Assembly: GCA_964522425.1 (NCBI GenBank)
Contig: CAZFUT010000003.1
Location: 452 to 64,451 of the forward strand
Direction: 5' to 3'
DNA length: 64,000 nucleotides
Source of the DNA: an uncultured Oscillospiraceae bacterium
GTDB lineage: Bacteria > Bacillota > Clostridia > Christensenellales > Aristaeellaceae
The translations under genes and the position numbers were made by a program. Below are positions 25,521 through 29,371 of the stretch, one piece after another. Position 1 is the first letter of the stretch. Each line of letters opens with the position of its first letter. A model generated the notes under the pieces. The model ran no database searches and was not told where the DNA came from. It saw only the letters and a program-made list of their open reading frames with translations.

Positions 25521-26570
25521 TTAATACGTGCTGAAACTGTAAACGGTCAACCGGTGATACGGCTGCTGCGCCGTAACAACAGGGCAGTCAAACGCCTCCT
25601 GGTTAACCGCGTCGGGATGATGCTGGGTTTCCAGCGCAATCCCGGCATACGGCCCGTACGCACGCTGCCCTTTTCCGGTAAGATGCAGGTTTTGTCCGGT
25701 GTACAACTGCATGGCGGGCTGATCGGTTTCCACCGTCATTTGCCGCCGGCTCATCGGATCGCGCAATATGGCGGCCAAGTGAAGCCCATTCCCCGGAAGG
25801 TCGTAGCTGATATCAAAGCCGTTGTCCCTGGCCATCAGCGGATGATCCTGCTTACGGTCGATGGCGTCGCGCAGCCGCGTGAATTTGCGCAGATCGTAAG
25901 GCGTACCCTCTGTTTCCATCAGCCAGCCGGTCGGAATCAGATCATCCCCTGTTTCGGCGACGAGGCTCGACGGGATCATCAGCTCGTGCTCCAGCGCGTC
26001 CCCTTCGCCGCTTAAATTAAAGTAGCTGTGGTTGCACAGGTTAAGCACCGTATCCCGGTTCGTTTCAGCCAGATAGTTGATTTCCAGCCGGTTGGCGTCA
26101 TCAAAGGAGTAGACCACCTGCACCCGTATTTTTCCGGGGAATCCGCCTTCCCCGTCGTGCGACAGCAGATAGAAGGCTGCAAAGTCTCTGTCCTTCCCCT
26201 CTGTCGTTTCGTATACCCAGAATTTCTTATCAAACCCTTCCGTGCCACCATGCAGGGTATTCACGCCTTCATTCGCGGTCAAGCGATAGGTTTCCCCGTT
26301 CAAAACAAACTGAGCACCCGCAATGCGGTTGGCATAGCGTCCGACCGTCGCGCCGATATAGCCGTTGCCTTTGGCCGCATAGCCGTCCAAAGTATCAAAG
26401 CCAAGGCACACATCCTTTAGCTGCCCGTTCTGATCGGGTACGATCGCCGACTGTATGGCTGCGCCATAGTTGATCAGCGATACGCTGGCCCCGTATCTGT
26501 TGGTCATGGTGATTTTATCGATGCGATGCTCCAAAAAATCCGTACCGAACGGTTCTATACGAATGCTCAT
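25521..26570 (-). CDS. galM: aldose 1-epimerase (galactose mutarotase family)
   Basis: NTLHGG..GFDKK.W, LCNHSYFNL, GIALETQHHPDA. Start set at MSIRIEPFG, giving an ATGA overlap with the rho-like stop. Confidence 0.85.
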   Translation of the reverse strand: MSIRIEPFGTDFLEHRIDKITMTNRYGASVSLINYGAAIQSAIVPDQNGQLKDVCLGFDTLDGYAAKGNGYIGATVGRYANRIAGAQFVLNGETYRLTANEGVNTLHGGTEGFDKKFWVYETTEGKDRDFAAFYLLSHDGEGGFPGKIRVQVVYSFDDANRLEINYLAETNRDTVLNLCNHSYFNLSGEGDALEHELMIPSSLVAETGDDLIPTGWLMETEGTPYDLRKFTRLRDAIDRKQDHPLMARDNGFDISYDLPGNGLHLAAILRDPMSRRQMTVETDQPAMQLYTGQNLHLTGKGQRAYGPYAGIALETQHHPDAVNQEAFDCPVVTAQQPYHRLTVYSFSTY

Positions 26571-28399
26571 GCTTGTTCTCCCTGCAAAAGGGCCATCCAC
26601 GCATCAAATCGTGATGTCAGCTCCCGGTTGGTCGTTGTTTTTTCCATAATGGACATTAAAAGCGACATGGCTTCCTCGTCGGATTTTTGAGCGATCATCG
26701 GACGCAGTTTGCCCATCATCTCCGCTTCATCCCTTGTTAAAAGCGCATCGCCTTTGACCGTAAAGCTGCGTGACAAGCTGATGGGGGCAGGTGCGCCCTT
26801 TTTCCTCAGCGCAGCATCAAACACCAGCGTTTCCGTCATGACGCTGTGCAGTTCCTCCGCAACGGCCTTGCCGGCCGTATTTTCTTCAATGCCCTGCAAT
26901 ATGGCGATAACCGTGATGCTTCCGCCCTCTTTTAGGTTGCGGGCAGCGCCCAGCAGTTTTTTCGCCTTGCCCGGTATACCGGCACCCAAAGAACCGCTTT
27001 GCCCATAGCTGCTTTCGCCGCTCATGCCCCTGTAGGCGCGAGACAGAGCGCCTAAATCATTGAGAACAATCAACACATCCTTGCCGCACTCGGCCAGACG
27101 CTTCGCGCGCTCGATTACCATATCACATACGCGCACATTGTTCTCCGGCGGCTCATCAAACGTAGCGTGGCGAACTTCGCAGTCAACCTCATTCTGTATC
27201 GCCGTTACCTCTTCGGGACGCTCATTGACCAAAAGAAGGATGCGGTGCATATCCGGGTAATTATCCTTTACGGAAGAAAGGGCCTTTTTATAGAATGCAG
27301 CGCGGTCGGCGCCAAAGGGCAGCGTTACCAGCGCACGCTGGCCAAAGCCGATGGGCGCAAACAGGTCGATCACGCGCAATTCCATATCGCTGTGTTCCCG
27401 GTCGGACAGCTTGATCTTTTTCTGCGGGTAAATGGGCGTCAGCCGCTCAAATTCGCGCCTTGGCGTGCGCTCGTCCACATCCTCCCCGTTGATGGCCGTA
27501 ATATAGAGCATGGCGCTGTATTTGTCCATTTCACGCTGGGGGCGGGTTTTGCCTTTTACGAAATCACCCGTGCGCAGAGAGAAGCGGCGTATCTGGGCGT
27601 TGGATACATACACATCGTTTCGGCCTGGCAAAAAATTCCCGGTGCGTAAAAAGCCGTAGCCATCAGGGTGTACTTCCAGCACGCCTTCACCCTCCCCGCA
27701 ATCCCCGGCAGCCATCATTTCGGGGACAGCCTGCAGGCTGCCCACGATTTCCCTTCCTCTCTGAGCCGAATAAGAAGGTTCCTCCGGGATGGAAGGCGGC
27801 GCGGGCGCAATGCCGGCGCGATAGATACGCTGCGGAACCGGCGGCTGCACAGCAGGCGCTTCGGGCGGCTGGGACGTCACATCCGGCCCAAAGCGGGTAT
27901 AGAGGGCGCTGCGGACAACGGGGGCCGCATCGGTCATCCCCTGCTGATTGCTGAGCACCATATTGATGGGCTGTGTCTGCTGGCCCTGGAACTTGCCGGG
28001 CGGAGGGACAGCGGCAAACGGCTGCGGATTGTGCCACGCACGCGCCCCCTGCAAGGTAAAAGCAGGCTTATTCCCCTTGGGCGGCGGCGGCGTAGGGCGC
28101 GGAATAGAAACGGACGGTTTGGCCGGCGCCGGAGGCACCGCCGCGCGGGGCTTCGGGTTTACCGTCATCACCGGAATATCATCGGAATCATCCGAAATGA
28201 TCAGCGCCTGCCGCACGGCAGGCCGGACGGCCGCCGTCGCCAGCGACTGCGCGGCCTCCTCTCTTTCGGACTGCGCATCATGAATGGTTTCCACCACCTG
28301 CTGCTTATTCAGCCCGGCAGAAAGCTCGATTCCCTGCTCTTTCGCATATTTGCGCAGCTGGGCAACCGTCATTTTTTTAAGTTCTTCTAAGGAATACAT
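26567..28399 (-). CDS. rho: Rho-family transcription termination factor homologue: atypical, with a long N-terminal insertion and a degenerate ATPase site
   Basis: 610 aa. Rho_N (MYSLEELKKMTVAQLRKYAKEQGIEL); CSD/OB RNA-binding domain (GVLEVHPDGYGFLR, DVYVSNAQIRRFSLRTGD); collinear motor domain (ERPEEV, ATFDEP, IERAKRL, LGAARN.KEGGSITVIA). The Walker A position reads LPFGADRA instead of APPKAGKT (see findings). Confidence 0.85.
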   Translation of the reverse strand: MYSLEELKKMTVAQLRKYAKEQGIELSAGLNKQQVVETIHDAQSEREEAAQSLATAAVRPAVRQALIISDDSDDIPVMTVNPKPRAAVPPAPAKPSVSIPRPTPPPPKGNKPAFTLQGARAWHNPQPFAAVPPPGKFQGQQTQPINMVLSNQQGMTDAAPVVRSALYTRFGPDVTSQPPEAPAVQPPVPQRIYRAGIAPAPPSIPEEPSYSAQRGREIVGSLQAVPEMMAAGDCGEGEGVLEVHPDGYGFLRTGNFLPGRNDVYVSNAQIRRFSLRTGDFVKGKTRPQREMDKYSAMLYITAINGEDVDERTPRREFERLTPIYPQKKIKLSDREHSDMELRVIDLFAPIGFGQRALVTLPFGADRAAFYKKALSSVKDNYPDMHRILLLVNERPEEVTAIQNEVDCEVRHATFDEPPENNVRVCDMVIERAKRLAECGKDVLIVLNDLGALSRAYRGMSGESSYGQSGSLGAGIPGKAKKLLGAARNLKEGGSITVIAILQGIEENTAGKAVAEELHSVMTETLVFDAALRKKGAPAPISLSRSFTVKGDALLTRDEAEMMGKLRPMIAQKSDEEAMSLLMSIMEKTTTNRELTSRFDAWMALLQGEQA

Positions 28400-28516
28400 T
28401 CCTTTCCTCCTACGATATGAAGTTCTTTCTGAAACAACACAGGAAAACTGCCTCTTTACAAAGGCGCAACAGGATACCTGCTTTATGGTTTGTCTGGCCG
28501 GAAAACAAGAATGGGA

Positions 28517-29371
28517 TCAGAGTGGATGTACCCCGACGCCGATCAGACCGGGACCTGTATGGACGCCGAGCGCGGGGCTGAGTTCGCTCTCGATAAACTC
28601 ACTGCAGTTGGGCAAGCGGCTCTTTAGCTCCTCCAGCACCTTCATCGTTTCTTCTTTGGCGCTGCCATGCGCCACCATGATGCGGTACTTTACATACTTT
28701 TTTGCTTCACGTACCGCGATGCTGATGATCTCCGCCAACGACTGGGCACGGCCGCGAGCCTTCGACGCCACGACGTAAACGCCTTCTTCGTTACAGGTAA
28801 TAATGGGCTTGATCTTAAGCAAGGTTCCCATTACCGCGGCTACTTTGCCGATGCGGCCACCCCTGGCCAGATATTCAAGCGTGGCAACAGAAAAATAAAT
28901 GTGTGTGCGCTGTATACTGACCTCTAAATTATGCAGTATCTCGCTGATGCTGAACCCTCTTTCTATCATTTCCCCGGCATATATGGCTTCGATGCCCGCG
29001 CCGATGCCGATATTCAGGGTATCCAGCACATATACCTGCAAACGCTTTTCTTCCTCGGCGATCAGCCGCATGGCATTGTAGGTACCGGAAAGGCCGCTTG
29101 AAATCGAAATCGCCAAAACGGTATCATACCCGTCTGCAACGATCTTATCCAGCGTGTCACGGATCGTCTGAATGCTGGGCTGGCTGGTTTTGGGGATTTC
29201 AGTCCCCATCCGATCGTATACTTCCTGCGGCGTAATATCCACACGGTCGAAATACTCTTCGTGCTGATACGCGATTCTAACAGGTACCACGTACATATGA
29301 TGCTTTGCAATATACTGTTGCGGAACATCGGAACAGGAATCGACCAGAATCGCAACGCGGTTTGCGCTCAT
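28517..29371 (-). CDS. DegV-family fatty-acid-binding protein
   Basis: 284 aa. VAILVDSCSDVP, TSQPS, SISSGLSGTY, GGRIGK. Typical DegV motifs. Confidence 0.85.
   Translation of the reverse strand: MSANRVAILVDSCSDVPQQYIAKHHMYVVPVRIAYQHEEYFDRVDITPQEVYDRMGTEIPKTSQPSIQTIRDTLDKIVADGYDTVLAISISSGLSGTYNAMRLIAEEEKRLQVYVLDTLNIGIGAGIEAIYAGEMIERGFSISEILHNLEVSIQRTHIYFSVATLEYLARGGRIGKVAAVMGTLLKIKPIITCNEEGVYVVASKARGRAQSLAEIISIAVREAKKYVKYRIMVAHGSAKEETMKVLEELKSRLPNCSEFIESELSPALGVHTGPGLIGVGVHPL

Follow-up and report, generated by a model that had tools for sequence, protein, structure and literature searches.

A Rho homologue at the rho locus of Christensenellales-type Clostridia

A gene whose product is homologous to Rho, the transcription termination factor, was analyzed in DNA of an uncultured Oscillospiraceae bacterium (GenBank assembly GCA_964522425.1, contig CAZFUT010000003.1, positions 452 to 64,451). 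The whole 64-kb stretch is referred to as the window, and all positions are numbered within it. The gene, hereafter the window rho, is a complete but degenerate rho open reading frame (ORF) at 26567..28399, encoding 610 amino acids followed by a TGA stop (ORF list, Pfam, NCBIfam, and phmmer); this gene and all features located below lie on the minus strand. An earlier note, made by reading the DNA without database searches, had described it as a Rho homologue with an intact RNA-binding domain and a dismantled ATPase site, with a good start context and translational coupling to galM. Both of the latter features were seen in the sequence: a Shine-Dalgarno AGGAGG (28406..28411) stands 6 nt before the ATG, and the TGA stop overlaps the ATG of galM in an ATGA (26567..26570), in agreement with the gene calls.

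The two neighbors, galM (aldose 1-epimerase, 25521..26570) downstream and a DegV-family gene (28517..29371) upstream, are conserved in synteny and mark the rho locus; the order around the window rho is InoP(-)-TtcA-DegV-rho-GalM-[AstE]-GlnA3(-). To place this locus, a genome scan with one genome per GTDB species was performed with two peptide patterns (AWHNP[QRH]PF, the top conserved pattern, and a GEGEGVLEVH-type pattern), and the best 80 of 95 confirmed loci were analyzed. All 80 come from gut, rumen, and anaerobic-digester Clostridia that are uncultured and carry the labels Christensenellales, Christensenellaceae, Eubacteriales, or 'Oscillospiraceae'; the closest match among these representatives, which do not include the window's own species, is 59% identical. 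The same gene order was found at eight loci with a strongly degenerate rho (L002-L007, L023, and L031) and at about 30 loci carrying every canonical Rho motif (L008-L022, L024-L036, and L040-L042), one of which (L008) lies in a 3.4 Mb genome. By position, the window gene is thus orthologous to the canonical rho of Christensenellales-type Clostridia; it stands where rho is conserved throughout its order and is not a side copy beside a normal rho.

The search for a second, canonical rho gave none in the window, where the window rho was the sole match of a tblastn search with E. coli Rho, and none of Christensenellales type in the scan. With these two narrow patterns and the best 80 of 95 loci, 0/80 scanned genomes had two rho loci, and no whole-genome shotgun prefix occurred twice. 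A second Christensenellales-type copy would rank inside the best 80, an unrelated type of rho would be missed, and the window's own genome is addressed only indirectly. Because the window rho lies in the shared DegV-rho-GalM slot and no scanned genome has two copies, it is most likely the lineage's own rho. With less certainty, we consider it more probable than not that it is the sole Rho-family protein of its genome. The simplest reading of these comparisons is that an ancestral single rho was converted in place.

Domain architecture and predicted fold

Pfam, phmmer, and Foldseek agreed with the earlier note that the product is a Rho homologue with a Rho_N and an OB domain. The Rho_N helical domain (aa 1-55, 28235..28399) matched PF07498 over aa 6-48 (E 1.4e-10, 41.4 bits vs a cut-off of 24.9) and was predicted with a local confidence (pLDDT) of 86-97. 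It is followed by a 170-aa insertion (aa 56-225, 27725..28234) that is rich in Pro, Ala, and Gln (P 20%, A 13.5%) and predicted to be disordered (pLDDT 43-61). The OB-fold primary RNA-binding domain (aa 238-308, 27476..27688) matched PF07497 Rho_RNA_bind (E 1.8e-30), and the RecA-like ATP-synt_ab domain (aa 310-610, 26570..27472), which keeps its fold around a dismantled active site, matched PF00006 over aa 341-545 (E 2.9e-12).

In the AlphaFold2 model, which was built from a MAFFT alignment, pLDDT was mostly >90 over aa 225-610, including the RecA-like domain, and Rho_N was also confident; the low-confidence parts were the insertion and the Q-loop remnant (aa ~461-480). The strand-P-loop-helix topology is preserved in the model (E355-360, H366-380). 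All of the top 50 Foldseek matches in the PDB were Rho protomers (E down to 7e-37, target-normalized TM score 0.83-0.92, 36% identity), with E. coli Rho as the best of them, and the best phmmer matches among all PDB sequences were likewise Rho proteins (T. maritima Rho, 3L0O, E 1.9e-72).

The family models differed in their calls. The window rho scored above the cut-off of the Rho equivalog NF006886 (347.4 bits vs 315) and far below that of TIGR00767 (341.9 vs 509.45 bits). Membership in the short-form Rho2 paralogue family ('Group B'), represented by NF041509 (paralog_Rho2), was rejected, as the protein scored below the cut-off (254.4 bits vs 628), has an N-terminal domain, and has lost its catalytic residues. 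NCBI names for members of the same clade (e.g., P0008, P0015, and P0148) range from 'transcription termination factor Rho' and 'Rho termination factor N-terminal domain-containing protein' to 'hypothetical protein'.

Motor residues are lost and the primary RNA site is kept

Rho is a hexamer with ATP sites at the subunit interfaces. The earlier note had listed four substitutions in this motor, namely Walker A GKT to DRA, the Asp of Walker B and that of DERPEE to Asn, and the Arg finger to Val. The motor motifs were registered by phmmer against Rho structures, by a MAFFT alignment that included 120 homologues and E. coli Rho, and by matching the AlphaFold model with Foldseek, and the three methods agreed; every functionally defined residue of E. 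coli Rho was compared in the window rho. In the phmmer alignments, 'ppkagktti' is matched by 'pfgadraaf', 'illdsl' by 'ivlndl', and 'nrsgtrkee' by 'srsftvkgd'. All four substitutions were confirmed, and the note had located Walker A and Walker B correctly. In all three alignments, the Walker A remnant LPFGADRA (aa 360-367, 27299..27322; APPKAGKT at E. coli 178-185) carries K181G, G183D, K184R, and T185A. The alignments also showed that D210 is N392 in the NERPEE segment (27209..27226), in which E211 (E393) and R212 (R394) are kept; that D265, S266, and R269 are N447, D448, and A451 in the Walker B remnant LIVLNDLGA (27047..27073); and that R366 is V548 and G364 is F546 at the Arg-finger position SFTVK (26753..26767).

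The losses extend beyond the earlier list: the protein no longer has its secondary RNA (translocation) site or its adenine pocket. The Q-loop remnant MSGESSYGQSGSLGAG (26978..27025) has K283 replaced by Y465 and T286 by S468 and is the sole low-confidence stretch of the RecA-like domain (pLDDT 52-66). In the R-loop remnant GIEENTAG (26870..26893), T323, S325, and K326 are lost (K326 is T508), according to the alignments and to the constraint comparison described below. The KGTGN loop (336-340), R347, and the adenine-stacking F355 are lost as well. The 16 degenerate sequences of the clade agree with this picture: the D265 position of Walker B is N in 10/16 and K in 6/16, the Arg-finger position is L, V, or M, and the Q- and R-loops are unalignable or deleted. 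The catalytic Glu (E211) is invariant in 16/16 of them, and the valve position is R in 8/16 and K in 8/16.

The similarity of the OB domain to that of E. coli Rho, noted earlier, is real. The primary RNA site of the window rho is intact (Y248, F250, R252, D262, Y264, R272, D292, and Y294), with E. coli F64, R66, D78, Y80, R88, and Y110 all retained; the change of Glu to Asp at position 108 is the state of all canonical relatives too, and the site is intact across all groups compared. The PEE residues, R272, K298, G302, R305, N306, the EGGS-T strand, S363, T365, and the C-terminal TN motif are also kept in the motor domain. Taken together, the window rho resembles E. coli Rho (PDB 3ICE, 5JJI, and 6DUQ) in three-domain order, fold, primary RNA-site residues, ERPEE, GAARN, EGGS-T, and TN, but it is without GK[ST], the Walker B Asp, R269, the stacking Phe, the Arg finger, the Q-loop K/T, the R-loop K, and KGTGN. 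With these residues replaced, the protein should be unable to hydrolyze ATP or to translocate on RNA.

The change is confined to the motor domain and maintained by selection

An identical 610-aa protein with the same neighbors was found in an independent assembly (Logan SRR15237809). Homologues with the same kind of substitutions were recovered at 83, 76, 75, 59, 57, 55, and ~45% identity, and the degenerate clade comprises at least 15 clusters at 90% identity, with an uninterrupted ORF, a place in the DegV-rho-GalM slot, and ~45-84% identity to the window rho. On these comparisons, degenerate Rho appears as a deep clade in which the same substitutions are conserved. The earlier note had asked after relatives with the LPFGADRA variant; a dismantled motor is shared across this deep clade and is not unique to the window. 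Since the protein is identical in an independent assembly and the substitutions are clade-wide, a sequencing error, which the note had named as a possible refutation, is excluded.

The ratio of nonsynonymous to synonymous substitution rates (ω) was calculated by the Nei-Gojobori method, with weight placed on three pairs with dS ~0.8-1.0 because synonymous sites have reached saturation in some of the deeper pairs. For the window rho and P0002, ω was 0.097 (dS ~1.0), with values of 0.06 for Rho_N, 0.13 for the insertion, 0.004 for the OB domain, and 0.127 for the ATPase-like domain. The other two pairs gave 0.13 (L002 vs L003; ATPase-like domain 0.15) and 0.07 (L005 vs L007; ATPase-like domain 0.054), and the OB domain lay at 0.004-0.08. 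Seven canonical rho pairs of the same order gave 0.07-0.21. Both overall (0.07-0.13) and in the dead domain (0.05-0.15), these values exclude the decaying pseudogene that the note had argued against.

At the loci sampled, coding G+C is ~42-45% in one degenerate subclade (L005, L006, L007, L023, and L087) and 56-60% in the other (the window, L002, and L003); therefore, the dead-motor state has persisted through a large compositional change. At one degenerate locus (L031:5325-7126, metagenome-assembled genome CAZCBC01), which contains 56 Ns, the rho needs one frameshift in the OB domain, which reflects either an indel of the assembly or the decay of this one copy into a pseudogene.

To compare rates between domains, pairs were matched on DegV+GalM flank identity. 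At a flank identity of 0.50-0.55, canonical pairs had an identity of 0.76 in both the ATPase and OB domains, whereas degenerate vs canonical pairs had 0.43 in the ATPase domain and 0.72 in the OB domain. At a flank identity of 0.6-0.7, the ATPase-like domain was 0.57 identical within the degenerate clade vs 0.84 in canonical pairs, and the OB domain was 0.82 in both.

Column conservation in 16 degenerate sequences was set against that in 97 canonical sequences of the syntenic type. Positions were scored as lost when ≥95% conserved in the canonical and <50% in the degenerate group, and as switched when conserved in both with a different residue. All 45 changed constraints (38 lost and 7 switched) fell in the ATPase domain, at positions known for catalysis or for the secondary site; Rho_N, the insertion, and the OB domain had none. 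The lost positions cluster in the P-loop (176-192), D210, Walker B and its flank (263-275), the Q-loop (279-287), the R-loop (323-328), residues 336-351, and R366; the switched ones are L245M, V254A, S266D, R269A, F300L, F301L, and D408T. Forty-nine ATPase-domain positions are invariant in both groups, and this shared scaffold is compatible with homohexamer assembly. The pattern points to loss of the nucleotide and translocation sites with retention of the scaffold. Because the clade has gained new specific constraints (e.g., S266D and R269A), it appears to represent a settled new state rather than ongoing decay.

Conserved motifs in the disordered insertion

Three short motifs stand out in the insertion. 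In motif 1, PAVRQALIISDDSDDIPVMTV (aa 60-80, 28160..28222), R63, A65, I67, I68, D70, and D74 show little or no variation in canonical and degenerate forms. Motif 2, KGNKPAFTLQGARAWHNPQPF (aa 108-128, 28016..28078), has P112, F114, G118, A121, W122, N124, and P125 invariant in 120 sequences, and motif 3, RFGP (aa 169-172, 27884..27895), is invariant in the same number. The consensus across 120 order-level Rho proteins reads RRALIISDDSDD.PVMTV, NKPAFxLQGxRAWHNPxPF, and RFGP, and no Pfam family covers the three motifs. The canonical orthologues have these motifs too, and the partner contacted is probably the same.

Variant P-loops in a wider set of Rho homologues

Many further Rho homologues of uncultured Clostridia have a non-canonical P-loop, and the alignment and a neighbor-joining (NJ) tree showed grades of erosion among them. 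In a second, larger group (L037-L039, L044, and many of P0087-P0120), Walker A reads 'xxRVDRLALL' and the Arg-finger motif has become 'GTIHDEW'. In this group DERPEE, the Asp of Walker B, and a segment resembling the Q-loop are still present, and it looks like a milder grade of motor loss. Intermediates with GRT, DKT, DKA, or SKK P-loops were also found. In part of the second group, mnmE (TrmE) lies directly upstream of rho (L043, L044, L045, L047, L062, and L063; e.g., L043:4159-5781). This one context carries GKT (L045), GRT (L043 and L047), DKA (L063), and DRx (DRI/DRL; L044 and L062) forms, suggesting that the P-loop was eroded in place in the mnmE-rho lineage too.

A profile of the window clade was searched against 1.84 billion cluster representatives, and the best 150 were examined (50%-identity clusters, P0162-P0305). 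About 55 of these 150 are without GK[ST], a count that is not a frequency estimate because the profile favors degenerate forms; the primary RNA-site residues persist in almost all. Many have Gly-Lys but another residue for the Mg-coordinating Thr ('TGKRELL' and 'TGKQELL'). The replacement of Gly-Lys by Asp-Arg (aa 365-366 of the window rho, 27302-27307) recurs in several lineages with different genomic contexts and may reflect either common ancestry or convergence.

Surroundings of the gene

The 117-nt DegV-rho spacer contains a weak terminator-like hairpin (28450-28465) with a 6-bp stem and a T-rich tail. A promoter and terminator scan around the window rho found nothing above shuffle expectation, terminator-like sites being no commoner than in shuffled sequence. 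Scans of the whole window (1-64000) yielded neither a tRNA gene nor an Rfam family at the gathering threshold.

Discussion

The window protein, as its residues are read here, is Rho by descent and not by its defining motor features. The closest known proteins are the long-insertion Rho factors of Christensenellales-type Clostridia (e.g., P0014 / L008; 'Type 2' in PMC11347177), which are its direct orthologues and share the DegV-rho-GalM context and the insertion motifs. Their OB domain is ~72-79% identical to that of the window rho, and their ATPase domain is only ~40-43% identical (vs ~76% in canonical pairs with equally diverged flanks); unlike the window rho, they have all catalytic and secondary-site motifs. 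The earlier note knew of no characterized example of such a protein, and full-text searches of the literature likewise yielded no description of a natural ATPase-dead Rho, although a prior mention in the supplement of PMC11347177 or in D'Heygère et al. 2013 is possible. The 2024 survey of 2730 genomes (PMC11347177) defined 'functional' Rho by domain presence and described the ATPase domain as highly conserved among functional Rho factors, and the account of a 2025 review (PMC12360218) contains no Rho paralogue or dead form. Rho-derived proteins of Baekduia soli and Conexibacter woesei (PMC11347177) resemble the window rho in having the RNA-binding half without a recognizable Rho ATPase; by description, however, they have no detectable Rho ATPase domain, whereas the window rho keeps the whole RecA-like domain, with a confidently predicted fold, under purifying selection.

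We consider it rather probable that the window rho is its lineage's rho converted in place to a pseudo-ATPase, acting as an ATP-independent RNA-binding or RNA-holding factor. The fold is kept, the catalytic residues are lost, and the state is conserved across the clade under purifying selection, as in pseudo-ATPases. The same pseudo-enzyme logic applies to F1-ATPase alpha and V-ATPase B (ATP-synt_ab), which are conserved non-catalytic RecA-like ring subunits; those subunits, however, still bind nucleotide and always occur with a catalytic partner, whereas the pocket of the window rho is dismantled and no catalytic partner was found. As a pseudo-ATPase, the protein would assemble into Rho-type oligomers through its conserved RecA-like core, capture pyrimidine-rich single-stranded RNA on multivalent OB sites, and engage a partner through the insertion motifs. 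Because translocation would be impossible, it would work without ATP, for example as a scaffold or roadblock or as a sensor associated with RNA polymerase, and not as a helicase-driven terminator.

The strongest alternative, which we nevertheless judge unlikely, is that the protein is a regulatory or decoy subunit beside a canonical Rho encoded elsewhere, either tuning or poisoning translocation in mixed hexamers or competing for rut sites as a built-in anti-terminator. Dead subunits would be dominant modifiers because the ATP sites lie at subunit interfaces (3ICE/5JJI), the conserved scaffold and primary site fit a subunit that assembles and binds RNA, and a second rho of a different type would escape the pattern scan. 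For species that carry two rho genes, the formation of hetero-hexamers has been suggested (PMC11347177), and the atypical 'Group B'/Type 4 Rho proteins (NF041509) have been discussed as possible partners in them. Two-rho genomes are, however, found mainly among Actinomycetota and PVC-group bacteria, and their second copies keep the catalytic residues (PMC11347177). 'Group B' proteins are extra copies that usually are without the N-terminal domain and keep the catalytic residues and bicyclomycin pocket (PMC11347177); the window rho has that domain and has lost those residues. Moreover, it sits in the ancestral slot and not at a new locus, the window has no second rho, and no second Christensenellales-type copy occurred in the 80 scanned genomes, eight of which have a strongly degenerate rho.

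It is quite improbable, in our estimation, that the protein is a motor-free terminator, which would attach to nascent RNA and to the elongation complex and, independently of ATP, inactivate the latter allosterically or as a roadblock. The protein has its N-terminal half, its insertion motifs, and its primary RNA site in exactly the form of the canonical orthologues, so the means of recruitment to RNA or to the polymerase are probably still there. For M. tuberculosis Rho (PDB 7OQH), which also has a long N-terminal insertion and is a weak NTPase, action without the motor was at one time put forward (cited in PMC4499133). According to PMC4499133, however, M. tuberculosis Rho requires its ATP-dependent motor, and it differs from the window rho in keeping all motifs. 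In E. coli, point mutations in the Rho ATPase domain lead to defective termination (PMC11347177).

An NTPase with a non-canonical nucleotide site, for which the retained catalytic Glu, Arg valve, PEE segment, and GAARN/EGGS would speak, is very improbable given that other residues have taken the place of the Gly, Lys, and Thr of the P-loop, of K181, of the Asp of Walker B, of R269, of the stacking Phe, and of the Arg finger, with an Asp where the phosphate-cradling Gly used to be. A recently dead relic or an assembly or sequencing artefact is scarcely credible: the frameshifted L031 relative and the dispensability or absence of Rho in many Bacillota (PMC11347177) would suit it, but it is effectively ruled out by the ORF uninterrupted in at least 15 clusters, by ω of 0.07-0.13 at dS of 0.8-1.0, and by the identical sequence in an independent assembly, and the strong Shine-Dalgarno, the coupling to galM, and the new invariant residues S266D and R269A also stand against it.

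Several points weigh against conversion of a single rho in place to a pseudo-ATPase. The NJ tree puts the degenerate clade with the variant-P-loop Rho proteins, outside the syntenic canonical clade. This placement may be long-branch attraction, and the tree is indicative only, because long degenerate branches probably attract each other; the placement would also fit an old duplication. The scan patterns were narrow and covered the best 80 of 95 loci only, so an unrelated second rho would escape them. Retention of the catalytic Glu and the Arg valve is unexpected for a fully dead site. Loss of the ATPase is read from sequence, with ATP binding through an unconventional site formally possible, and oligomerization is judged from the predicted monomer only; 'ATPase-dead' and 'ring-forming', the terms of the earlier note, thus describe predicted properties. 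Finally, purine bias, an idea for detecting loss of Rho pressure taken from PMC13323073, did not differ between degenerate- and canonical-rho loci (sense strand 0.523 vs 0.513, 4-fold sites 0.44 vs 0.42, p ~0.1). Neither group, and so not even the canonical-rho relatives, has a strong Bacilli-type bias, so that the comparison does not bear on loss of Rho pressure either way.

Textbooks present Rho as the ring-shaped RNA motor, and what it does has been equated with ATP-driven translocation. The degenerate clade is a natural separation-of-function mutant and gives direct access to the question of what Rho does once the motor is gone; its conservation suggests that Rho performs a useful task for which no motor is required. 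The wider set of non-canonical P-loops suggests repeated or graded, uncatalogued motor loss. Because one NCBI equivalog model calls the window protein Rho, presence/absence surveys and termination predictions would wrongly assume Rho-dependent termination in these abundant gut, rumen, and digester Clostridia. As a tentative proposal, which we put at somewhat less than an even chance, these Clostridia may be without any motor-competent Rho, and the long retention of a motor-dead Rho would then reveal a second, ATP-independent function of the family. Candidates for it are the multivalent capture of nascent pyrimidine-rich RNA and docking through the insertion motifs. If this is true, an ATP-independent function would have been selected on its own and may also be hidden in canonical Rho.

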